Shown here in pieces: positions 4,470 through 57,999 of a DNA stretch of 64,000 nucleotides. The notes under the pieces are model-generated. The model was not told the DNA's origin, made no database searches, and saw only the letters and a list, made by a program, of their open reading frames with translations. Positions within the stretch are counted from its first letter, which is position 1. Every line of letters begins with the position of its first letter. Made by a program: the position numbers and the translations under genes. The DNA is taken from the UHGV virus genome UHGV-1374671; one strand, 5' to 3'. The stretch is from a virus.

Positions 4470-5747
4470 ATGAAAATTGTACTGGCCGATACAGTGATCA
4501 CTGTGTTCGGGTGGCTCAATGTGATGGATCAGATCGGAAAGTACAAGCTGAAGATCCGCAAGACTCCTCAGGAGATCCGTGAGGAGAAGGAGATCAGACG
4601 ACAGCGGTACGGAAGCGACGCCCATAAGGTGAATCCTATGCGGTACGAAGATCGCACCGTGATCGCCAAGAATCCGTCTGATCCTACCATCGCATACTTT
4701 CTCCCAGGGCTGTGGCCACGGGTGAAAGGCTATCTGGATACGCAGAAGATTACATACGAAATCGAGGACAAAAGGGATCCTTCCATCAGGCCTGACCCGG
4801 ACTATTCAAAACTGGCCGGAGCGACATTGAGACCAGGACAGGATACCGCCTTGGCCCTGATTACGTCGTTGGATTGTGGGCTAATAAATACCAGCACGGC
4901 ATGGGGAAAAAGCCATCTAATATCTTTTATATGCAAGGTTTATCCCACGCTTAACATTGTCGTCACCACTGGATCCACCACGGTGGTCTCAACTCTGTAC
5001 GAATATCTGTGCAAGCAGCTGCCCGGCCAGGTCGGTTACCTGTACGCCAGGGGCAACACCACGCATGGAAAACGGGTGATTGTGACCACGCTGAAGTCGT
5101 TGCCGAACATCTCTCCTGAGCGCGTCCAGTTGCTGTTGTGCGACGAGTGTCATGCCTGCGGAGACAACGAGGCCGGCAGGGCAGTGTCCAAGTTTGTGTT
5201 CAGCCGCAGATTTGGATTCTCCGCCAGTCCGATCCGCAATGACGGCTCCAGAATCGTTATGGAGTCCATCTTCGGACCTGAGATCATGAAGATGACCTAC
5301 CAGGAGTCTGTTGACGTTGGAAACATCGTTCCCATGAAGTACCTGATGCTGCCTTGTCACAAAGGGCCAACCAGCTTGTGCGACAAGCCGGGCATGGACG
5401 ATGTATTCAAGAAGCGCTTCGGGTACTGGTGCAACTACAACAGGAACAGGGCTATTGTGGAACTGGTCTACGACATCAAGCAGGTGTATGAGGGCCAGAT
5501 TTTGATAATGGTCGGTTCACTGGAACACGCAATTCAGTTGCACATTATGCTGCCCTGGTTCAAGGTCGCTCATTATGGCGCAACTGACTTGGACGAACTC
5601 AAGAAAAAGAAGTTCTCCAAAGACAAATACTCCGACATTGACTTTTCTCAGTACAAGATGAGCCAGAAGCAGCTGGACATTATGCGGGCCGCCTTTGCAA
5701 AAGGTACGCTCAGGTACGTGATCTGCACCAAAGTGTTTAAACAAGGT
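4470..5747 (+). CDS. SF2 (DECH-box) DNA helicase, exon 1 (UvsW/RAD25-like)
   Basis: Motif I-like GKSHL and motif II LLLCDECH. The ORF stops at 5771 just before helicase motifs V/VI, which resume in 6035-6295. Confidence 0.7.
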
Positions 5748-6034
5748 AAACATCAATGCCTCGCAGCATAGGAATGTGCTGTCGTGAGCCGCTTAATTGC
5801 TGGGAACTCCGACCGGGTAATGCCGAGGACAATCAGCAGCGAAGTCCTGAAAAGTAGGAAACGTTCAACGACTATCCCTGCGGGGAGTACACGCAAGTGC
5901 GTGGAAACAGCGGCCACCCAGAACGGGTGAAGATATAGTCTGACCTTGCATGGTAACATGCAGCTGGATTAACAATCCGGGCTGAGCGTAACGAACTCAG
6001 TTGAACACAAAAGGTTGATTTTAAAGCACTTACG
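5748..6034 (+). other. Group I intron (~287 nt, no ORF) interrupting the helicase gene
   Basis: Exon 1 ends in U (ggT, 5747) and the intron ends in G (6034). Motifs V/VI (GVDVSGVE..QIPGRVARL) continue in frame from 6035. The intron shares blocks (gtgagccgc, aattgctgg, aatcagcagc, cagctggat-aa-ccggg-tgagcgta-cgaactca-ttgaaca) with the insertion at 10936-11290. Confidence 0.6.
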
Positions 6035-11366: not shown

Positions 11367-12473
11367 GTGATAAGCAGAGCTCATACAATCAAGCTGAAAC
11401 CCAATAAAGCACAGGCGATCATGCTGGCCAAGACGGCCGGTACTGCCAGGTATGCCTACAACTGGGGATTGGCCAAGTGGAATGAGCTGTACGAAGCCGG
11501 TGAGAAGTGCAGTGCTTACAGCCTGATGAAACTTTGGCAAGAAGGCAGACCTGACTGGGCATTGGAAGTGGGCGCTGCGTGTTTGCAGCGCCCGTTCATG
11601 CACCTGGAAGGCGCCTTCAAAGCGTTCTTCAGAGGACAGCGTAAGCACCCAACCTTTCACAAGAAGGGTTTGCGGGACGGGTTCTACGTCCCGAATACTC
11701 ATTTCAAACTCCGTGGTAACAAGGTTCAGCTACCCAAGTGCGGACTTGTCAGAATGACCGAGCGTATTCGTTACGCGGATGTGAAGGTTGTTTCTTCGGC
11801 AGTCAAGCACCAGGCAGACGGCTGGTATGTCGTAATCCAGGTCGAGCTTGAAGAGGAACACAGAACCGAATCCGACTCTTTTGTCGGAGTCGATGTCGGA
11901 TGTACCCAGCTCGCAACAGCGAGCGACGGTACGACCTGCTGCTCACCGGCCAAGCTCAAAGACCTGGAACGTCAGCTGAAACGTAGACAGCGCTTGCTGG
12001 CACGCAAAGCCAAGGGCTCCAACAATCGAGCGAAAGCGAGATTGAAGGTAGCCCGTACCTGGCAACGAATCAACAATATCAAACAAGACACAGCTCACAA
12101 GTTCACTGCACTCATTGCCAAGAACCACGGCACTGTTTGCATTGAAAAGCTGGATGTGAAGAGTATGCAATCAGGAGACAACGCCCTCGTAAGAAAGGGC
12201 GTGCATAACTCCTGCATGTCGGAAATCCTGAGACAACTCAAGTACAAGTGTAACAACTTTATTGAAGTTGACAAGTATTTCCCGTCCAGTAAGACTTGTT
12301 CGAACTGTGGGCACATAAACGCTGAACTGACCCTTGGGGATCGCACGTATAATTGTCCGGGCTGCGGACTGAAAATCGACAGGGATCTGAACGCAGCGTT
12401 GAACCTCCGTAAGGAGGGTCTGAGGATTTACACGGTGGGTCACACCGGCAGTGCCTGTGGAGTTGCCCGGTAA
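11367..12473 (+). CDS. tnpB: TnpB (IS605/OrfB family RNA-guided RuvC-like nuclease)
   Basis: RuvC-I GVDVG, RuvC-II IEKLD, zinc finger CSNCGH..CPGCG, RuvC-III DRDLNAALNL. Catalytic residues are intact. 368 aa. Confidence 0.85.
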   Translation: MISRAHTIKLKPNKAQAIMLAKTAGTARYAYNWGLAKWNELYEAGEKCSAYSLMKLWQEGRPDWALEVGAACLQRPFMHLEGAFKAFFRGQRKHPTFHKKGLRDGFYVPNTHFKLRGNKVQLPKCGLVRMTERIRYADVKVVSSAVKHQADGWYVVIQVELEEEHRTESDSFVGVDVGCTQLATASDGTTCCSPAKLKDLERQLKRRQRLLARKAKGSNNRAKARLKVARTWQRINNIKQDTAHKFTALIAKNHGTVCIEKLDVKSMQSGDNALVRKGVHNSCMSEILRQLKYKCNNFIEVDKYFPSSKTCSNCGHINAELTLGDRTYNCPGCGLKIDRDLNAALNLRKEGLRIYTVGHTGSACGVAR

Positions 12474-12570: not shown

Positions 12571-13464
12571 GTGTGCGAAATGGAGAAACCGTCACTGCGG
12601 AAAGACGCCAGGAACATGTACTCGAAGCTCCTGGAGGACTACGAGATCATGGCGTTCGACCAGGCCACCAAGGGAATCGTCATGCCGTCGTTTGTGGCGC
12701 ATCTGATGGAGCACTACAACAAGCAGCGTGATTCCGGAGAGGTCGCAGCAAAGGGCTACGACTTCGGAGCCGCAGTCAAGTACGCCAGCGAGTACATCGA
12801 CGATCATCCTGAATGGCTGTCGAAATCCGAGCAGATAGGTCCCAGCAAATTCTTCCAGAATCATGTGAAGGGCATCATGGAGGCCAATCCGAAGCTGGAG
12901 CTGGAGACCACTCCCAAGAGTGGGGCAGTCAAGCTGACACTCAAGGACAAGTGGCGGTTGGAGGACAACGGCATCAAGGACAAGTTCTTGGATGCTTACA
13001 TTGACTTCAATCATTGCCAGAAATATTTAAGTACCTATATGAACCGTTTGTTCATCAAAGGGGATAATCGGATACATGCCAGGTTCACAAATATTTTGCG
13101 GACCGGACGTACCAGCTGCACCGGACCTAACTTGCAGAATTATCCCAGCAGGGACAAGGTGTTTCCGTTGAAGAACATCTTCTGTCCTTACGATGGCATG
13201 CTGTTGTGTGCTACCGACTTCTCGTTTATTGAGTTGTGTGGCTTTGCCCAGTCCTGTTACAGCAGGTTTGGGTTCAGCGTTATGCGCGACGTCATCAACG
13301 CAGGTCTGGATCCGCACCGCTGGTTCGCAGCGGTGATGGACAAGCTGATCAAGCCGGACCTGACGCACAAGGACGACCCGAAATGGGTCGCGGAACTGAA
13401 AGGATTTTTGAAAGCAAATGTAGACGATTCAAGACGACAAAAGGCCAAAATGGCCAATTTCGGT
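12571..13464 (+). CDS. Family-A DNA polymerase, exon 2 (fingers/palm, motifs A and B)
   Basis: Motif A CATDFSFIELC and motif B RRQKAKMANFG. The frame is open from 12487, so the true exon start may be earlier. Exon taken to end at NFG (13464, U) before the intron. Confidence 0.65.
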
Positions 13465-13718
13465 CGACCATCAAGGCCGAATTAAAACTGCGGAATTAAG
13501 CGGGGAACTCTCATTGAGACGATCCGAACCGAAGCCTGGAAGGGATTCCAGTCAGGGACAGAGCATACCGGCAGGGGAAGAACTCCCATCAGCCGACACG
13601 AGGCCGCAGCAACTGGAGAAACAACTCTGGTTGAAAAGATATGCCGAGCTGTGTGGCGACATACAGAAGTGCTGGATAAAAAGCCGGCACGATAACAAAA
13701 CTGTTTCCAGGAGCACTG
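13465..13718 (+). other. Group I intron (~254 nt, no ORF) in the DNA polymerase between motifs B and C
   Basis: Starts caccatcaaggcc like the helicase intron (aaacatcaatgcc) and has the related block agtgctggataaaaagccgg. Ends in G at 13718. Splicing gives NFG|GVKTFYRNCRESGVHLTMEEAEF, which aligns to Pol I NFGVLYGMSAHRLSQELAIPYEEAQAF. Confidence 0.6.
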
Positions 13719-20218: not shown

Positions 20219-21014
20219 CAAGTTGCAAAGACTGAAACGGATGCAGGACCTGGTGCTGTTCAAGTGGGTTTGCGGTCAGAAACGAGTGGCCAGCAATTTC
20301 ATCATGCTCAGCGATCTCAGGCTGAATACGCTTACCTGTCACGCCGGTCGCGTCGTGTTCTCCAGTGCGGCTCCTATTCTGTTCATGGAGAAAGGCAGAC
20401 CGGTGATCCAGTTCCGTGACTCGGACATCATGACTGTACTGAACGGACCAAGAAAGGGGATCAACATCCTTAGCCGTTTTTTGCAGCCTGGTGAGGAGGC
20501 TTCTGCTTGCAGATATTGCGACTGGCGTGAGGTCGTGGATTCCAGCTACTGTCCTAAGTGGTTGGAAGATAAGATCATGTCCATGGGAAACAGCCCGACG
20601 TATCCGGTCAGCAAGATCATCATGCCGGAACTGTTTCGCATCAGTAAGAAGCCGGAGACTCTGAAACCGATCTTCAGCTCCAGTTTCATCGAGGACATTG
20701 GAGGCTCCAAAACGGACTCGATGCAGGAGCTGCTGCAGAAGTTCTACAACAATTTGGACCTGTTTGGATATCACACCGACGAGGGTTATGTGATCAGCAA
20801 CGATTACATCGCCACTGGAGGATGCTGCGTAGCCGCCTCCAAGGGAATCAACGCACGTACAGGAAGCAGCGTGCACATGATGACCTTGAGAGCGTTCGCA
20901 GCGGACGTAGCCAGACGTCATTGGAGTATCCAACTGGCCAGACAAACCAAGCAATCAGGAGGCAACAACAATGGAGATGTGGAAAGATCTGATACTGTCC
21001 GTAACACCAGGTGA
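20205..21014 (+). CDS. Hypothetical protein
   Basis: ATG 20205 follows a GGAGGCGGAGC RBS, in frame within ORF 20139..21014. Confidence 0.45.
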   Translation: MTLYDKLQRLKRMQDLVLFKWVCGQKRVASNFIMLSDLRLNTLTCHAGRVVFSSAAPILFMEKGRPVIQFRDSDIMTVLNGPRKGINILSRFLQPGEEASACRYCDWREVVDSSYCPKWLEDKIMSMGNSPTYPVSKIIMPELFRISKKPETLKPIFSSSFIEDIGGSKTDSMQELLQKFYNNLDLFGYHTDEGYVISNDYIATGGCCVAASKGINARTGSSVHMMTLRAFAADVARRHWSIQLARQTKQSGGNNNGDVERSDTVRNTR

Positions 21015-21597
21015 TATCTGTTTCCTGGCTACTGCCACCACAGGACTGAATCCGGGGCCTGACAAGCTGTTGGGAGTGTCCTTGTGCAGATACAGTCCCC
21101 AGGAAGAGGCAGGGCAGACACTGCAGTTGATTCACAGCGTGGATCGGCTGCTGCTTTTGAAAGGCGAACGGTATCACAAGATATCGGAGAGCCTGATGCA
21201 GTCCGACGGACTCGATACACGGGAGTTCAGCGACCGATTCGACGAGTTCACCCAGGACTGTACGTTCCTGTCGTACAATCCGGAGTTCCAGGAGAAGTTC
21301 CTGAACACCATACTCAGGAATCCTGTCCACATCTACGATCTGCCGTTGCTGCTGCGCGGCGCGGAGACCAGGATGGTGTGGGACAGGGAAGAACTGTCGT
21401 CCCTGGACGAGATCACCAAGACGTTCTCGAAGGTGGTCGGAAAGGTTCCCAGCTTGAAGCAGTTGCTCAGACTGAACAACATGGTTGCCGAGCCGCCGTT
21501 CAACATGCTGCCTATGACCTACTTTTGCGCAGCCCTGTCCGGGCTCTGGGAGAAGTTCGACCTGATCCCTTTGGCAGTGCAAGAGTCGTTGGCTTGA
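20971..21597 (+). CDS. DnaQ/DEDD-fold exonuclease-like protein with substituted catalytic residues (probably inactive)
   Basis: Exo I position reads FLATATTGL (Ala where the acidic D-x-E is expected). Exo II-like FLSYNPEFQEKFL is present. Confidence 0.4.
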   Translation: MEMWKDLILSVTPGDICFLATATTGLNPGPDKLLGVSLCRYSPQEEAGQTLQLIHSVDRLLLLKGERYHKISESLMQSDGLDTREFSDRFDEFTQDCTFLSYNPEFQEKFLNTILRNPVHIYDLPLLLRGAETRMVWDREELSSLDEITKTFSKVVGKVPSLKQLLRLNNMVAEPPFNMLPMTYFCAALSGLWEKFDLIPLAVQESLA

Positions 21598-22072
21598 CGA
21601 GGTTGCGCATGCCTGCGGCAGCGGCCAGCAGATTGGCCCGGTTCACAAAACCGATCGCAGGCACGGCTTCCTTCGTTATGACCAGGCACTTGTTGGACTG
21701 CTTGCGGTTCAGCAACCCTGTGCTGGCGCCGGCAGGATAGTACAGCAGTACCTTTCCTCCCAGCCCGCACGGGTCGATGGCGCAGGATTTGTCGTCAGGT
21801 CCTGAGAGCTGCCATTTGGTCATGTCCACGGCAATGAATACGCCTTGCCTCTTTGTTCTTGGTGGTTTGCTGCAAGCGAGCAGGAAGCACAGGGATATCG
21901 GGGCAAGGTCTTCTATTTCCGTGTCCTTTGTCTCAAACAGAGGGCATGTCTGCAGAGTAGCGTACCGAATCACATCCGTTCCGGTTGCCTCTGTTATAAT
22001 GCTCTCAAAGTCAGCTACACGGATTCCTTTTGTGAGCTGATCCGCAAGCGTATAACACTCTAAACAATCCAT
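21512..22072 (-). CDS. Doubtful minus-strand ORF; if real, probably only the 3' ~100 codons (internal Met near 21826)
   Basis: GC3 is ~79% over 21600-21720 but ~40% over 21990-22072. Its start would lie 9 nt from the RT start. Long antisense ORFs are common in this GC-rich sequence. Confidence 0.2.
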   Translation of the reverse strand: MDCLECYTLADQLTKGIRVADFESIITEATGTDVIRYATLQTCPLFETKDTEIEDLAPISLCFLLACSKPPRTKRQGVFIAVDMTKWQLSGPDDKSCAIDPCGLGGKVLLYYPAGASTGLLNRKQSNKCLVITKEAVPAIGFVNRANLLAAAAGMRNLVKPTTLALPKGSGRTSPRARTGLRKSRS

Positions 22073-22081
22073 GAGGTCCCA

Positions 22082-23035
22082 ATGTTCGATTTTGACATGC
22101 CGCCCCTTGACTGGAGAACGGCATTTATCCCAAAAAAGTCAGGAGGGATGCGTAAGCTGCGAATCCCCAATGACGAGCTCAAGCGCGTTCAGCGCGACAT
22201 CTTAAACTACCTGTACACTGTAAAGGAGTTGAGGCCGTCAGGCTTCGCTCACGGCTTTGTTCCGTTCAGAAGTACCTGTACAGGAGCCATGCGACATGAT
22301 AGAAAGGCCGAGGTCATCCTGTGTATGGACGTACAGGATTTCTTTGACAACTTCCCGGTGGAACCGGTAAGGCAGGCCTTGCTGAATGCCCATATCGGTC
22401 GGGTTCTCACTGACAAGATCATCACAGCCTGCACCTGTGACGGGTCCTTTCCGCAAGGTGGACCGTGCAGTCCGTACCTGACCAACATCGGCATGAAGGA
22501 AGTGGACTTGTTGATCTCCGCGTATGCGGCCAACAACGGGTTCAATTACTCAAGGTATGCCGATGACATCGCCCTCAGTCGTGATCCGCATACGACAGTT
22601 CCAGAGAAGCGCAACTACAAGCACATTTTCTTCGGAGTCGAAAAGATTCTGAAGGAACGACTGGGGCTTCACCTGAAGCACAAGAAAGATCACACGATCT
22701 GGCTTCACAGCAAGAAGGCGCCCAGACGTATCACAGGTGTGGTGATCCGGAAAGACGGCACAGGCTACAACGCTCCGATGAAGATGCGCAAGCTGGGCCG
22801 TGCCATGTTGCACCGTCTGTATCAGAGAATCTCGGACCGCAACGGTGTGGTGCTGGATTCGGACTGGGCGGACTGGAGAAAGGTGCTGGGCTATGTCCAG
22901 TATTTCGACCGTATCCGTGCTTACAGCGAACCGGAGTCCGCCACTGCGGATCCCAAGATACCGGAGAATCAATTCAACTATATGGCAGCCAGATTTGGCA
23001 TGAAGAGGAGAACAAACAATGAAAACATACAGTGA
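22082..23035 (+). CDS. Reverse transcriptase, retron-like (317 aa, RT domain only)
   Basis: RT motifs IPKKSGGMRKLRIP (1/2), ILCMDVQDFF (A), FPQGGPCSPYLTN (B'), YSRYADDIALS (C, YADD). Downstream RRITGVVIR resembles the retron VTG motif, and LLNAHIG is near the retron NAxxH. GAGGT RBS. Confidence 0.8.
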   Translation: MFDFDMPPLDWRTAFIPKKSGGMRKLRIPNDELKRVQRDILNYLYTVKELRPSGFAHGFVPFRSTCTGAMRHDRKAEVILCMDVQDFFDNFPVEPVRQALLNAHIGRVLTDKIITACTCDGSFPQGGPCSPYLTNIGMKEVDLLISAYAANNGFNYSRYADDIALSRDPHTTVPEKRNYKHIFFGVEKILKERLGLHLKHKKDHTIWLHSKKAPRRITGVVIRKDGTGYNAPMKMRKLGRAMLHRLYQRISDRNGVVLDSDWADWRKVLGYVQYFDRIRAYSEPESATADPKIPENQFNYMAARFGMKRRTNNENIQ

Positions 23036-24992
23036 ACTCCTGCAGGAAGCCTGGGACGCCGACCGGGACTACTACGTCCTGGACAAGCCCACGCTCACCG
23101 ACGAGGAGTACGACAAACTCATTCGCAGCATAGAGGCCTATGAGATGCAGCACCCGGACGAGATCGATCCCAACAGCCCGACTCAGCGCATCGGCGGCAA
23201 GGTCTCAGGCGCGTTCCAGAAGGTAAAGCATCCGCAGAAGATGTTAAGCCTGAACAACGCGTTCACGCTGACAGAGCTTCAGCTGTTCGCCACCAAGGCC
23301 AACAGGACGGCGCCAGATGGTGTGACGTTCCTGGTGGAGCCGAAGCTGGACGGGCTCACGTTGGTCTGCTTCTACGAGGAAGGAAAGCTGATCAGGGCGG
23401 TAACCCGTGGCAACGGCGTAGAAGGAGAGGACGTCACCGCGACAGCCAGGACGATCCGCAATCTTCCGTTGACAGTTCCGTATGCCGAATCGTTCCAGGT
23501 GCGCGGCGAGTGCGTCATGCCCATCCAGGTGTTCATGGAGCTGAATGCGAAACTGACGGACGCCGGTGAGGAACCGTTCGCCAATCCCAGGAACGCGGCT
23601 GCCGGCAGCATTCGGCAGAAGGATCCGGCATTGGCTGCCGAGCGCAGGTTGTCCGTGTGCTTCTACGATCTCATCAACGGACCGGCAGACCGGATTTATA
23701 CTGAATCCGACAAGCTGGACTGGATGGAGGAGATCGGACTGCCCACCGTGAGATCAGCGTCCGAGGCGTTCGAGGACATCGAGGGCGCCTTCGAGTTCTG
23801 CACCCAGTGTGGAAAGGTTCGCTCCGATATGCCTATCGAAATCGACGGCATGGTTATCAAGGTGAATCGCATCTTCGTACAGGACAAGATGGGAGTCGGA
23901 ACCAAGTTCCCGAACTGGGCCGTGGCTTATAAGTTCCCTGCGGAGCACAAGGCGACCAGCCTGACCTCAGTCGAGTGGCAGGTGGGGCGCACCGGAAAGG
24001 TGACTCCCGTGGCAGTGGTGGACGCCGTCAACATGAACGGCATCTTGCTCACTCACGCCAGCCTTCACAACCCGGCCTACATTGAAGCCCTGGACCTTCG
24101 TATCGGGGACAAGGTGACGGTGTACAAGGCGGCTGAGATCATCCCGCAGGTAGGCACGGTACTGGAACACGGCGACGGGCAGAAGGTGAAGATCGCGGAT
24201 CAGTGTCCCAGCTGCGGAACCAAACTGGTGCAGGACGGTGCCGATCTCATGTGCACGAATCCGAAGTGCATTGGACGCCTGGTCACCTGGCTGTACTATT
24301 TCGGAGCCAGGGCCAACATGTACATCAAGGGTCTCGGTGTTGCCGTTATCAAGCAGCTGGTGGACTCAGGTATGTGCAAGGATCCTGCAGATCTGTACGC
24401 GCTGACCAGGGATCAGCTGCTGAAGCTGGACGGGTTCAGCGACAAGAAAGCTGACTCGCTGCTGGCCTCCATCCAGGAGTCCAAGGCGCGTCCGTACCAC
24501 AGAGTGCTCGCATCCCTGGGCATCGAGATGCTGGGCGATTCCACTGCCGTTGACGTGGCTGCCCAATTTCCCACCATGGAGGCCCTTCTGGCTGCGACTG
24601 TGTCCGACCTGATGGAAATACCTGGGATCGCACAAAAGACAGCCACAGCGATCTATGCGGGCCTGCATGACGATTCCATGGAGGACATCATAACCAGACT
24701 CGGAAAACAGGGTCTGTCGATGGTCAGCGAGTCGTCCAAGGAGCCGCAGACGCTGTCCGGGCTTTCCATCTGCATCACCGGAACTCTCACCAGGGATCGT
24801 GATTCCTACAAGGACGAGATCCAGTCGCATGGTGGAAAATTCGCAACCTCGGTGTCATCCAAGACCAGCTACCTGGTCGTAGGCGAGAACGTTGGTGAAA
24901 CAAAACTGACAAAAGCAAGGAAGCTCGGCATCCCGATGATATCGGAGGACCAGCTTCAGGAGTTGATCAAACATGGAAAACAACAAAATTGA
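23019..24992 (+). CDS. ligA: NAD-dependent DNA ligase
   Basis: LigA N-terminal Ia domain; adenylation KxDG (EPKLDGL); OB, Zn, HhH and C-terminal BRCT-like regions. 657 aa. Confidence 0.85.
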   Translation: MKTYSELLQEAWDADRDYYVLDKPTLTDEEYDKLIRSIEAYEMQHPDEIDPNSPTQRIGGKVSGAFQKVKHPQKMLSLNNAFTLTELQLFATKANRTAPDGVTFLVEPKLDGLTLVCFYEEGKLIRAVTRGNGVEGEDVTATARTIRNLPLTVPYAESFQVRGECVMPIQVFMELNAKLTDAGEEPFANPRNAAAGSIRQKDPALAAERRLSVCFYDLINGPADRIYTESDKLDWMEEIGLPTVRSASEAFEDIEGAFEFCTQCGKVRSDMPIEIDGMVIKVNRIFVQDKMGVGTKFPNWAVAYKFPAEHKATSLTSVEWQVGRTGKVTPVAVVDAVNMNGILLTHASLHNPAYIEALDLRIGDKVTVYKAAEIIPQVGTVLEHGDGQKVKIADQCPSCGTKLVQDGADLMCTNPKCIGRLVTWLYYFGARANMYIKGLGVAVIKQLVDSGMCKDPADLYALTRDQLLKLDGFSDKKADSLLASIQESKARPYHRVLASLGIEMLGDSTAVDVAAQFPTMEALLAATVSDLMEIPGIAQKTATAIYAGLHDDSMEDIITRLGKQGLSMVSESSKEPQTLSGLSICITGTLTRDRDSYKDEIQSHGGKFATSVSSKTSYLVVGENVGETKLTKARKLGIPMISEDQLQELIKHGKQQN

Positions 24993-25956
24993 ACTGGACG
25001 ACATCACGCCGGCCTCGTTCGCGCATCTGATCGAGCGACGTGACGACATCCTCCTTCAGCACGGAGGTGTGGTTACCCGCATGTATTTCGACAAGGTCGA
25101 GCTGATGGATCTGGACGCTTTCCTTCAGCAGGAGGTGCCCAGGCTGAAGCGACAGCAGCAGGAGCTCACGATCATACGTGACTCCGTCAGCAAATCCGTC
25201 AGCCTGATTACCGGAGACCAGGTGATCAAGTACCACCTCACGAACATGGAGGAGTGCTTCGCGGACGAGCTGGCCAAGCTGATCAAGGTGGATGAGGTGA
25301 AGACGTTCATCCCGGACATTCACTATCCGTTGATCGGGTATGTGGACAAGGCCGATTACAAGGTGATAACTGTTCTTATCGAGAACAAATCGTTCACGTA
25401 CAGAACCAAGATGTTCGGCGGCGATCAGAAGGAATACGCCACGCGTGTTCACCTTCCACCGATATGGCTGGCTGTCCGCGTCAACAGGGCCGGTACGGTT
25501 CTCGGGGCCAGGATCGCTGCAGTACCGGAGAAGTCGTTGAAGACGGAGGACACGGTGCTGTACCGGCTCCCGCTTCCGAACATACACGTCAACGGAGAAC
25601 TGTGTCTTGGCACAGCTGCAGTAAAGGACGCATTTGCGCACGTGGAGCAGCCTACTGATGGCATGATTATTCAGGTCGTTGTTGATCAGATCTTCAACAG
25701 TCTGTGGAACTATGACCTTATAGATCGCGATCTCGCCGAAGTGGTGAATGACGCCTACAGGAAAGCGCGTGTCAACAACCGTGACGCGTTCGACTCGTTT
25801 ATTTCATATGCTGCTGGTAACCAGGCTGTTGCGATGCAGATCCGTATTGTTGGAATCCTGACCGATCCCAATGGTTGGAAGTTATTGAAGTACCGCAAGA
25901 TGAACAAATACGGCGGTGGAGACAGGATGCCTGTTACGCAGTTTCTGGAGGGCTGA
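24973..25956 (+). CDS. E2 (UBC)-like ubiquitin-conjugating enzyme homolog
   Basis: Active-site signature LPNIHVNGELCLG (cf. eukaryotic HPNIxxNGxICL) with a candidate catalytic Cys. Start overlaps the ligA stop. Confidence 0.6.
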   Translation: MENNKIELDDITPASFAHLIERRDDILLQHGGVVTRMYFDKVELMDLDAFLQQEVPRLKRQQQELTIIRDSVSKSVSLITGDQVIKYHLTNMEECFADELAKLIKVDEVKTFIPDIHYPLIGYVDKADYKVITVLIENKSFTYRTKMFGGDQKEYATRVHLPPIWLAVRVNRAGTVLGARIAAVPEKSLKTEDTVLYRLPLPNIHVNGELCLGTAAVKDAFAHVEQPTDGMIIQVVVDQIFNSLWNYDLIDRDLAEVVNDAYRKARVNNRDAFDSFISYAAGNQAVAMQIRIVGILTDPNGWKLLKYRKMNKYGGGDRMPVTQFLEG

Positions 25957-25959
25957 CAG

Positions 25960-26199
25960 ATGCGGGAACCCTTGTTTAAAAGGAAGCGGCCGATCAGGGT
26001 CGTCCTGCAGCGCGCCCCGTATTACGGGTACGCTCCGATCGGCAAAGAGGGGAACAGCGGAATGAACGCGTTCAACGCAGCCTTCGAGCAGGCTGTGAAA
26101 GCCACCAAGATGACGGTGATGGCCAACGCCATGAAACAAATCCAAAAAGAGGCCGAGCATGTAGACTCGGATCTCGATATCCGAACAATTGAGGTGTAA
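25960..26199 (+). CDS. Small hypothetical protein within the Ubl module
   Basis: 79-aa ORF tightly packed between the E2-like and JAB genes. Confidence 0.4.
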   Translation: MREPLFKRKRPIRVVLQRAPYYGYAPIGKEGNSGMNAFNAAFEQAVKATKMTVMANAMKQIQKEAEHVDSDLDIRTIEV

Positions 26200-27355
26200 G
26201 ATGAGAAGTTATCTGATTGGGAGCGACAGGTGTCTTGTGCACACCAAATCTCCCATGCTGGAAGGGTGGGAGCCTTGCAAGGACCTGGAGGTCATCAAGG
26301 CGTTCGCCCCCAAGTGCAACCCCAAGTACCAGCCTGGGATGGTCTGGGTAGGCAGCAAGATGCCGTCCGAGCTCTTCCAGAAGGTGCTTGGCACGTTTGC
26401 GCAGTTCCCGAAGATGGAAACAGCGTACTCGATCTATTACCGGCTCAGCGACAGAAGCTGGCACATTAAAGTTCCTTCCCAGTGCGGGGCAGGGGCGTCC
26501 GTGCAGTTCGAGGACAAGGGGGATGGCGTACCGGCAGGCTATGCTCTGATCGGGTCCATTCATACGCATCCAGAAATGGGTGCGTTCTGGAGCGGTACCG
26601 ACATGAACGACCAGAAAAGCAAGTACGGGCTGCATATGGTATTCGGTCTCAAGGACGGAAAGGTGGCTCATCACAAGTGCTCCATCTTCACTCCCACGGA
26701 CAAGTATGACCAGGAGATCTGGAACGTGGTCGAGGAAACCGACTTGGACGCCGACTATGAAGCTCCCCCGGAGTGGGTCGAGAAGATCAGGGCCCAGGAT
26801 TACAAGCCGGTGAGGCAGTCCTGGGTGCAGCCTCTTCCGTACGACGTTTCCGGCAAGTACAGGTCTCCGGGTCAGTTTATGCGACCCCGTTACAACGTCC
26901 TCAGGCCTGTCACGTACACCTGGGATGCCGGCAGCGGCTGGCACAAGAATGATCCAGACGTGGCACAGCCCACTTGGGAAGCCGGCACTTTCTCTTATCA
27001 TGAGCCTGACGTCAATGCCCAGGAGCAAGTGTCCGACGCTGTTCTGAAAGCGCGTAAGGAATTTGAGAACGCACTGGACGTCCTTGTATGCGAGGCCGAC
27101 TCCGAATACGTTCAGGAACTTCTGGACAGCTACGGGTTCTCCACGATGGACATGGAAACCGGCGCCATTGCCGGCGACGACGAGGACATCTCCTGGGAGG
27201 AGTCCCTGGACGAAGCTCTGGCAGTGGCTGCGGAGTTCGCCGACGCGGACCCCAACCCGGAGACCAGGGATACTATGCGGGCCATCCTGCAGAAGTACGG
27301 GTTTGTCAGTGTCCATGCTCTGGATGAACAGGAAGAGGAGGCTCCATCATGCTGA
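26189..27355 (+). CDS. JAB/MPN (JAMM) metallopeptidase, deubiquitinase-like
   Basis: JAMM motif HTHPEMGAFWSGTD (HxHx7Sx2D). Confidence 0.7.
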   Translation: MRCKMRSYLIGSDRCLVHTKSPMLEGWEPCKDLEVIKAFAPKCNPKYQPGMVWVGSKMPSELFQKVLGTFAQFPKMETAYSIYYRLSDRSWHIKVPSQCGAGASVQFEDKGDGVPAGYALIGSIHTHPEMGAFWSGTDMNDQKSKYGLHMVFGLKDGKVAHHKCSIFTPTDKYDQEIWNVVEETDLDADYEAPPEWVEKIRAQDYKPVRQSWVQPLPYDVSGKYRSPGQFMRPRYNVLRPVTYTWDAGSGWHKNDPDVAQPTWEAGTFSYHEPDVNAQEQVSDAVLKARKEFENALDVLVCEADSEYVQELLDSYGFSTMDMETGAIAGDDEDISWEESLDEALAVAAEFADADPNPETRDTMRAILQKYGFVSVHALDEQEEEAPSC

Positions 27356-28245
27356 ACATCTATGTGATCGGCTGTGGAGGCATCGGAGGGTACCTGACTG
27401 AGATGCTGCCGATGGCGATCGCCAGTCTGTCCCTGGACATTCTCCAGAGCAAGGGCATGTCCATTCAGGCGTACTTGGACAAGGCCGGCAACATCGCACT
27501 GCCTTGTGTCGCTGACCGGCTCACTCTGGTAGACGGGGATATCTTCAACGCCAGGAACTCCCTGCGACAGGGAGCAGGCGCCGGCAGCAAATTGGCCCAG
27601 CGAATGCAGGACATCCAGCACTCCGTGGTCAGGCTCAGCTATCTGCAGAACATGAAGCTAGTCGGGTATAACGCCTATGTGAACCCGGCCAACATGTCAC
27701 AGATCATACCTGAGCATCCGGAAATCAACCCGGACAACGCGGACGCCGCCATGAAGTACGGTAGCGATAGGCCTGCAGACTGTCCGAGACTGTTGGACAA
27801 CTCGGTAGTGTTCCTGTGCGTGGACAACCTCAAGACCAGGTACGAGGTTTCCAAGTACATGGAAAACTTCCAGAACTGCCTTGTCATCAATGGCGGGAAT
27901 GAGAAGACCTCAGGACACGTCACTCTCTATGAGCGCCGGAACGGGGAAGCACTTGATCCCAACATCTACGACGTGTATCCCAACATCACACCGGACGCGG
28001 ACAAGCGTCCCGACGAGGAGGCATGCACCGAGATGTCTCCCAAACACGATCAGATTGCGGTGACGAACAGCATCGTCGCCAACATCATGATAGCCAGCTT
28101 CAACCGGTGGGCCAGATCAGGACTGACCCAGACGGAGGGAACCGGCGAAAGAAAGCGCACGGTGCGCAAAAACGAGGTGATCATTGACACTGACAGGATG
28201 TCCATGATTTCCGTGTATCACCCGCTGGGAACGCCCAGCAAGTAA
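27349..28245 (+). CDS. E1-like (ThiF/MoeB/UBA family) activating enzyme
   Basis: Rossmann IGCGGIGG; adenylation motif LTLVDGDIFNARNSLRQ; candidate catalytic Cys in LCVDNLKTR. Start overlaps the JAB stop. Confidence 0.7.
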   Translation: MLNIYVIGCGGIGGYLTEMLPMAIASLSLDILQSKGMSIQAYLDKAGNIALPCVADRLTLVDGDIFNARNSLRQGAGAGSKLAQRMQDIQHSVVRLSYLQNMKLVGYNAYVNPANMSQIIPEHPEINPDNADAAMKYGSDRPADCPRLLDNSVVFLCVDNLKTRYEVSKYMENFQNCLVINGGNEKTSGHVTLYERRNGEALDPNIYDVYPNITPDADKRPDEEACTEMSPKHDQIAVTNSIVANIMIASFNRWARSGLTQTEGTGERKRTVRKNEVIIDTDRMSMISVYHPLGTPSK

Positions 28246-57917: not shown

Positions 57918-57999
57918 CATTTTATAACGGAACATATCTCTGGAGGTAACACCCCCTATAGGGGGTGTTACCGTAAGAGAGATATGTTCCTATAAAATG
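57918..57999. repeat. 82-bp nested imperfect palindrome (outer ttttataa/ttataaaa, 13-bp ggaacatatctct/agagatatgttcc, inner perfect 28-bp ggtaacaccccctatagggggtgttacc)
   Basis: Read directly; centre at 57958/57959. Asymmetric internal loop (ggag versus cgtaag). Confidence 0.7.

Follow-up and report, generated by a model that had tools for sequence, protein, structure and literature searches.

A retron-type reverse transcriptase and its opposite-strand neighbour gene OrfX in a replication block of large phages

The RT-OrfX locus

The stretch of DNA analysed here, hereafter the window, covers 64,000 nt of UHGV virus genome UHGV-1374671. It carries a gene for a retron-type reverse transcriptase (RT) and, back to back with it on the opposite strand, a gene named OrfX (coordinates of all features are given in Table 1). 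The spacer between the two start codons contains GAGG, a Shine-Dalgarno-like site for the RT, and the corresponding distance amounted to 0-15 nt in most relatives and up to 18 nt in others. Relatives were compared as loci of about 7-13 kb.

The reverse transcriptase and its family

The product of the RT gene matched Pfam RVT_1 at 1.5e-21, and its description as an RT-only protein in the original prediction, which had been made from the letters of the window alone, was confirmed. All of its 25 best PADLOC matches were retron RT models, at about 1e-41 and with several types nearly equal. Likewise, 28 of 28 family members matched PADLOC retron RT models (1e-45 to 1e-51 across the family), and because they matched many type models about equally, the family fits no described retron type. 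Among NCBIfam models, retron_St85_RT (7e-42) and retron_Ec67 (1e-36) both stayed under their curated cut-offs, and group_II_RT_mat was weaker than the retron models (1.3e-23; 83.7 bits for a cut-off of 300 bits). The closest PDB relatives were the RTs of retrons Ec67 (1.6e-24) and Ec86 (5e-19), with an alignment that extended through the thumb.

Retron RTs are defined by region X (NAxxH, between RT2 and RT3, where H is the most conserved residue) and by region Y (VTG in RT7, where G is the most conserved one; PMC7736814). Motif conservation was judged on an alignment of 28 family members (alignment A1). Invariant or nearly so were motif A (D83), QGxPxSP, YADD, H72 within T/S/G-A-x-x-H and G219 within (I/V)TG. 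The motifs QGGPCSP (residues 125-131 of the window RT), YADD and RRITGVV had already been pointed out and are conserved in the family. The equation of LLNAHIG with NAxxH was mistaken, as this segment follows motif A and lacks conservation; the actual counterpart of region X is GAMRH, in which the N is not kept. Since the N-terminus MFDF.MPPLDW is conserved among relatives, the start codon of the RT is considered right.

Three other RT classes were tried and rejected. For a diversity-generating retroelement (DGR), no direct repeat of at least 30 nt resembling a template/variable repeat (TR/VR) pair occurred in the 64 kb, and the best matches of the RT were retron models; the earlier judgement that a DGR was unlikely was upheld. 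For a group II intron, the Rfam search of 20500-23500 at E up to 10 gave nothing relevant near the RT and no intron RNA, and group_II_RT_mat was outscored by the retron models. At gathering score, Rfam applied to the whole window likewise gave nothing relevant near the RT, the only hit being a group I intron at 5738-5963. For the UG/Abi (DRT) RTs, Drt2 (1.3e-11) and Drt3a (7.7e-11) were far behind the 1e-41 of the retron models. From the PADLOC models, the Ec67 and Ec86 relatives and regions X and Y, we assign the RT to the retron branch, as originally predicted, and to neither the DGR nor the group II intron RTs.

A search of 5.8 billion proteins uncovered about 80 clusters of homologues (37-98% identity, E <=1e-51). 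These were set apart by an E-value gap from 1e-51 to 1e-27, where ordinary retron-like RTs begin, and many members were found on contigs of 148-196 kb. No match was obtained by blastn of 20900-25000 against 50,697 phage records, and a literature search returned no paper on this RT family or on the RT-OrfX pair.

OrfX

The 484 nt upstream of the RT had been described as gene-free. This could not be maintained, since minus-strand OrfX, which occupies them, is conserved and predicted to code for protein. Full-length homologues were found at 61-98% identity and were called as a gene in syntenic contigs, where OrfX always lay between the DnaQ-like gene and the RT, on the opposite strand. More distant loci displayed the same open reading frame (ORF; 176-208 aa, 25-35% identity) with clear conserved motifs, the family alignment spanning 25-65%. 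These motifs were CYT, GI.V..FE.I, SL.F, G...A.D..W.L, DP.G and P.I...RA.L. A profile search of 1.84 billion representatives gave 75 clusters, nearly all of which measured 150-210 aa and were covered over their full length. When the window was compared with locus L003, differences were 0.27, 0.20 and 0.53 at OrfX codon positions 1, 2 and 3, respectively; substitution rates were thus ordered position 2 < 1 < 3, which is a codon-type pattern. An AlphaFold2 model built from 11 sequences only (pLDDT 76.5, pTM 0.73) displayed a beta-rich globular domain (residues 1-154) followed by a disordered, basic, low-confidence tail, and it is this tail that falls inside the convergent overlap with the DnaQ-like gene. 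OrfX had no match in Pfam, PHROG, PADLOC, NCBIfam, PDB or BFVD.

A strict association was observed between OrfX and the RT family. OrfX adjoined each RT of the family that was examined, in about 20 loci whose phage contigs reached 196 kb, and its profile matched all RT-family loci and 0 of about 140 loci with other retron-like RTs. When the DnaQ-like upstream gene was used as bait for relatives without RT or OrfX, only known contigs carrying both were recovered.

Six loci (L011, L012, L013, L015, L169 and L170) displayed in-frame stops in OrfX. The OrfX profile nevertheless matched a single minus-strand frame over the whole length in each of them. In L012, L013 and L169, the OrfX stretch appeared as a gap of about 500 nt, devoid of long ORFs and of called genes, and L170 displayed an uncalled gap of about 600 nt at this position. 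The profile matched there at 1e-13 to 1e-21 in the first search and at up to 1e-51 once these sequences had been included in it. In the three loci inspected (L012, L013 and L169), each OrfX was interrupted by 8-10 TAG codons, with no TAA or TGA inside the gene; RT, DnaQ-like, E2-like and other replication neighbours in recoded loci had no in-frame TAG. Since non-coding DNA would not avoid two of the three stop codons, OrfX in these relatives looks like an amber-recoded coding gene, with recoding locally confined to one opposite-strand gene.

Amber reassignment is known from gut phages (PMC9523058, PMC11210395), where recoded stops were suggested to mark late-infection genes (Borges et al. 2022, as reported in PMC11210395). 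We propose that OrfX and the RT fall into different temporal classes, because TAG recoding is confined to it and because it is oppositely oriented in an almost all-plus genome. No sign of amber recoding was found in the window genome: its OrfX is devoid of in-frame TAG, and TAG terminates 13 of 70 long plus-strand ORFs. This genome appears to use the standard code, recoding being a matter of the relatives only.

The 14-nt inverted repeat

A 14-nt inverted repeat upstream of the RT had been likened to retron a1/a2 repeats. The repeat itself exists: its arms match at 13 of 14 positions with 322 nt between them, they are the only such pair in the window, and they outscore all 60 dinucleotide shuffles of the 520 nt that precede the RT. 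The 3' arm ends 33 nt before the RT start. Its counterpart is absent from relatives, however. None of 16 homologous loci had a better-than-chance long-range repeat (best score 7-9, for a shuffle mean of about 8), and their best repeats occurred at inconsistent positions. Among the four closest lineages (window, L003, L179 and L180), pairing between the arms is kept in 71% of cells, a value equalled or surpassed by 274 of 500 shuffles; 5 of the 14 pairs are lost in at least two of the three closest relatives, with one compensatory change. One locus of 17 beating all its shuffles is about chance level. The repeat is significant locally only and private to the window genome.

The same repeat script was applied, as positive control, to 83 loci with ordinary retron-like RTs (40 shuffles each). 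Repeats scoring at least 12, nearly all perfect and 12-14 nt long, occurred in 23 of these loci, and 18 beat all 40 shuffles (11-14-nt repeats). Control arms spanned 120-250 nt and recurred among related loci. The pair TGCGCACCCTTA / TAAGGGTGCGCA, found among the ordinary retron-like loci, is presumably the a1/a2 of Ec86. The test is thus able to detect real a1/a2, and the RT family studied here lacks them. An RNAduplex comparison of the RT-proximal 100 nt with the upstream region gave z scattered around 0, in a test that was too permissive.

Two side observations concern the control set. Perfect 12-13-nt repeats of the a1/a2 type lie upstream of the RT in IMG/VR contig loci L051, L082, L031, L033, L035, L048 and L050, and a recurrent control repeat was xGCATGTAGGCA/TGCCTACATGCx.

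RNA folding and nucleotide-level constraint

Segment 21690-22060 (371 nt) folded at -159.4 kcal/mol on the RT strand (z -6.5, compared with -4.1 for the opposite strand) and ranked about 10th of 1,276 windows after GC correction (top ~1%). Yet, random 375-nt pieces of the window had a mean z of -2.6 +/- 2.0 on the plus strand and -1.9 on the minus strand versus dinucleotide shuffles, and the segment lies only about 2 standard deviations (SD) below this genome background. Since random pieces already beat their shuffles, single-sequence fold z-scores are poor evidence for a non-coding RNA (ncRNA) here.

In homologous segments of 14 loci, z averaged about -3.8 for the RT strand and -2.6 for its complement; RNAalifold, run on a codon-anchored alignment of these loci, predicted almost nothing (15 pairs) and no consensus structure. 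In the four closest lineages, consensus energy was carried by sequence identity, the covariation term contributing only -1.1 kcal/mol. No synonymous-site constraint was detected in OrfX, where third codon positions were saturated throughout (pairwise identity 0.2-0.3), even in invariant codons, which argues against a superimposed nucleotide-level element. Likewise, a search of the RT 5' codons for a hidden promoter or RNA element gave no excess of synonymous conservation. An msr-msd ncRNA bounded by a1/a2, as proposed for this stretch, is not borne out: the DNA is predicted to code for OrfX, the repeat is private and no conserved fold was found.

Two further candidates were rejected. A shared hairpin over the OrfX N-terminal codons had pairing columns in just 3-4 of 14 loci, the window not being among them, and is partly explained by complementary Gly (GGN) and Pro (CCN) codons in the conserved motifs. 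Other strongly folding stretches were considered as trans-acting ncRNAs; the ones inspected (57.3-61.7 kb) lie inside small ORFs of a tightly packed genome, and because strong folding is a genome-wide trait, fold strength is no pointer to ncRNAs there. Two other structural features were recorded: the minus strand of about the first 470 nt of the window folds extremely well (-228 kcal/mol for 371 nt, 6.6 SD beyond the GC-corrected distribution), and positions 57918-57999 form an 82-nt palindrome with 41-nt arms, 76% complementary and without spacer.

Genomic neighbours

The window corresponds to the replication/repair block of a phage-like genome, whose genes almost all share the same strand. 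The block comprises Mre11-like and Rad50/SbcC-like genes, two helicases, TnpB, a PolA fragment, the DnaQ-like gene, OrfX, the RT, the ligase, an E2-like/JAB/ThiF(E1)-like set and ThyX. The immediate flanks of the pair had been correctly named as a degenerate DnaQ-like protein and an NAD ligase. The former displays ATATTG where the catalytic DxETTG is expected, and the same loss was observed in relatives (LLFATATTGVN, LLCTATTGLKP and LMTTATNGLTP); it is a conserved but apparently inactive exonuclease fold.

The RT stop overlaps the ligase start by 17 nt. In L001, L166 and L168-L171, no ligase separates the RT from the E2-like gene; OrfX, RT and the E2/JAB/E1 genes remain together with or without it. 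Pfam matches of the latter set were weak: ThiF alone passed its gathering score, E2_D and JAB being just below theirs. We consider these genes a putative phage-encoded ubiquitin-like conjugation set.

As no non-coding DNA lies on either side of the RT, its leader RNA must be antisense to part or all of OrfX, and the OrfX promoter must lie inside the RT gene. A sigma-70 promoter and terminator scan gave nothing above shuffles, with a sigma-70 model that may not be the host's.

Two further elements were also recorded in the window. A group I catalytic intron at 5738-5963 (+; Rfam RF00028, 88 bits, E 4e-21) overlaps the 3' end of a helicase-like ORF (4470-5771), which is probably a split gene. 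An IS605-type TnpB at 11367-12473 (+; OrfB_IS605, Cas12f1-like TNB and HTH) adjoins the DNA polymerase A fragment (12571-13485). TnpB positions differ among relatives (L004:1-146, L015:3823-4908), and in L015 the insertion of an IS605-type TnpB separates OrfX from a 5'-truncated RT.

Table 1. Features of the RT-OrfX locus and of its surroundings, with positions in the window unless a locus is named.
Feature	Position	Strand	Remarks
RT gene, retron-type	22082..23035	+	317 aa, RT domain only; intact ORF
GAMRH, region-X (NAxxH-type) motif between RT2 and motif A	22283..22297	+	codons 68-72; H72 invariant in 28 members
YADD, catalytic motif C	22556..22567	+	codons 159-162; invariant in alignment A1
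ITG within RRITGVV, region-Y (VTG-type) triplet in the thumb	22730..22738	+	codons 217-219; G219 invariant in 28 sequences
OrfX, conserved predicted protein gene	21512..22072	-	186 aa; fills the supposed gene-free stretch upstream of the RT
Spacer between back-to-back starts, CAT GAGGTCCCA ATG	22073..22081	.	9 nt; read from sequence
Repeat, 5' arm, GCTTGCGGTTCAGC	21700..21713	+	inside OrfX codons LLNRKQ
Repeat, 3' arm, GCTGATCCGCAAGC	22036..22049	+	inside OrfX codons TLADQL
Convergent overlap of OrfX and DnaQ-like 3' ends	21512..21597	both coding	86 nt; same length called in L002-L005
Recoded OrfX homologues	L012:4400-5000, L013:300-900, L169:2420-3020	opposite to RT	TAG-only interruptions
DnaQ/DEDDh-like gene, degenerate catalytic motifs	20971..21597	+	PADLOC DEDDh 6.5e-6; syntenic in all relatives
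NAD-dependent DNA ligase	23019..24992	+	Pfam DNA_ligase_aden 2.6e-76 and further domains
E2-like (Prok-E2_D), 79-aa ORF, JAB-like and ThiF/E1-like genes	24973-28245	+	downstream of RT

Comparison with known systems

Bacterial retrons (Retron-Eco1/Ec86, Ec67; types I-XIII, Mestre et al. 2020, PMC7736814) share with the window RT a length of about 300-320 aa, the same branch, a region X of the xAxxH form and a region Y of the (V/I)TG form. Their organization differs in several respects. The window RT is devoid of a contiguous same-strand non-coding msr-msd, the upstream DNA being taken up by OrfX and the 3' end overlapping the ligase; its a1/a2-like repeat occurs in the window only and is not conserved across the 16 relatives. 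The family is unassignable to a type, as type models score alike and below curated cut-offs. Retron RTs normally function with an effector (PMC7736814), whereas OrfX lies on the opposite strand and resembles no known effector or PADLOC model. Moreover, the window RT resides in the core replication block of a large phage instead of a bacterial defence island or prophage.

The nearest case in the literature is the RT of Staphylococcus jumbo phages such as MarsHill, which is also retron-like and occurs in a large virulent-type phage without DGR parts or recognisable effector. Yet, it is 501 aa long, with an extra N-terminal domain and a 1.2-kb non-coding region upstream, compared with 317 aa for the window RT. 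As for amber-recoded gut phage genes (genetic code 15), they resemble OrfX in the TAG-only stops of the three inspected relatives, whose neighbours have none, in contrast to the window genome with its apparent standard code.

Interpretation

The sequences show a phage-specific family of retron-type RTs which lies head to head with OrfX and has no conserved upstream retron ncRNA. Our working model for this pair is held with moderate confidence. The RT would be expressed together with the plus-strand replication genes, by read-through or from a promoter inside OrfX. Because its catalytic residues and regions X and Y are kept under strong constraint, it probably still primes on a structured RNA and makes short cDNA from it; this template may be encoded at another place in the genome or correspond to a rapidly evolving portion of the leader. 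OrfX would be transcribed separately and probably late, and in one subclade it would be the only local gene needing amber suppression. Its basic tail suggests that it may bind nucleic acid. It would act as partner or antagonist of the RT, and RT leader and OrfX mRNA, being mutually antisense, would make expression exclusive in time.

Several points weigh against this model. OrfX and RT could always be neighbours because they are inherited vertically within a syntenic block, and not because of a functional link. The window sequence itself folds unusually well on the RT strand, as seen from its z of -6.5. In addition, local structure is mildly enriched on this strand from -150 to +150 around the RT start among 17 loci: most 100-nt windows near the start had a mean z of -1.6 to -2.1, versus about -0.2 to -1.5 elsewhere. 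This excess was not tied to conserved pairs, and a poorly conserved RNA element may be present in the RT leader. Finally, the times at which RT and OrfX are expressed, their putative interaction and the putative cDNA product are inferences.

The pair might instead constitute a phage-borne cassette for defence or superinfection exclusion, in which the RT with its RNA or cDNA restrains OrfX as effector, and whose ncRNA lies elsewhere or is too variable to be recognised. We regard this as possible, if unlikely. The usual pairing of retron RTs with an effector (PMC7736814), the strict co-distribution of OrfX with the RT family, and its lack of a known fold and its basic tail speak for such a cassette, and a similar idea was proposed by the authors who described the MarsHill RT. 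It agrees poorly with the position of OrfX on the opposite strand, outside the RT operon, with its lack of likeness to any known effector or PADLOC model, with the location of the pair in a core syntenic replication block and not in a variable island, and with the failure to find an ncRNA.

That the RT is an accessory repair or replication polymerase without dedicated ncRNA, and OrfX an unrelated neighbour, seems distinctly unlikely to us. Group II intron-like RTs are reported to act in double-strand-break repair and would provide an analogy. The RT is located among Mre11/Rad50-like, helicase, PolA, DnaQ-like and ligase genes, its overlap with the ligase start suggests translational coupling, and no ncRNA was detectable. 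Nevertheless, strong conservation was seen in regions X and Y, used by retrons for msr binding and 2'-OH priming, and the ligase is missing from several relatives, OrfX never.

We consider it improbable that the locus is a true retron, with an msr-msd transcribed from plus-strand positions 21700-22049, the repeat as a1/a2, and the whole overprinted by OrfX. Such an organization would agree with the 13/14 match of the repeat and its success against all 60 local shuffles, with the retron-like position of the 3' arm, with the better folding of the enclosed 371 nt on the RT strand, and with the presence of regions X and Y, the parts responsible for msr binding and for priming on msr. Against it stand the 16 relatives without a comparable repeat at a consistent position, whereas perfect 12-14-nt repeats were detectable in 18-23 of 83 ordinary loci; the broken pairs in the closest lineages, with a single compensation and no advantage over shuffles; the lack of consensus structure and of synonymous constraint; a genome-wide background z already at -2.6; and a span of 350 nt, longer than the 120-250 nt of control retrons. 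Sequence data cannot separate this explanation from the defence cassette and the repair polymerase.

It is very unlikely that the RT template is its own plus-strand leader, antisense to OrfX, in which case DNA copies would carry the OrfX sense strand and the RT would control OrfX dosage or expression. The corresponding element, retron-like but with a template RNA overprinted by and coupled to an opposite-strand protein gene, is just as hard to credit. It was kept in consideration because the leader must exist and folds well here, because the priming motifs of the RT are kept, and because there is no other adjoining non-coding DNA. DRT2-type systems consist of an RT of the UG/Abi lineage and an upstream ncRNA whose cDNA becomes a gene. 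Under this speculative reading only, they would resemble the window in having an RT with an upstream RNA antisense to an ORF; they differ in that the window RT matches Drt2 just weakly (see above) and that OrfX, having start and stop codons of its own, is a normal gene of the genome.

The explanation that OrfX is not a real gene and that its frame stays open as a side effect of constraints acting on non-coding DNA may draw on the lack of a database family or fold match, on the stretch left empty by gene callers in L169 and L170 and on a start codon that abuts the RT start without space for a promoter, but it is close to refuted by a frame preserved across about 20 loci, even where identity falls to about 25%, by the codon-like substitutions, by interruptions that were TAG only, never TAA or TGA, in the independent sequences inspected, and by a confident AlphaFold2 model from just 11 sequences.

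Significance

Retron RTs are known from bacterial anti-phage devices, in which the RT is combined with an adjacent ncRNA and an effector. The family described here, about 80 clusters of retron-type RTs, was found in a conserved replication block of large uncultivated phages, head to head with OrfX and with no room for a canonical ncRNA. Two practical lessons follow from the locus: an apparent gene-free gap beside an RT can be an opposite-strand gene, and amber recoding hides OrfX from standard gene callers in related phages. The locus also poses a testable question, namely the role of a retron RT in a phage genome offering no canonical template. An active RT would mean one of two things: an RNA template that is new in kind or location, or the recruitment of retron RTs to a phage function, which may be counter-defence, exclusion of rival phages or DNA repair. 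Any such role, if true, would broaden the known activities of the retron RT class.

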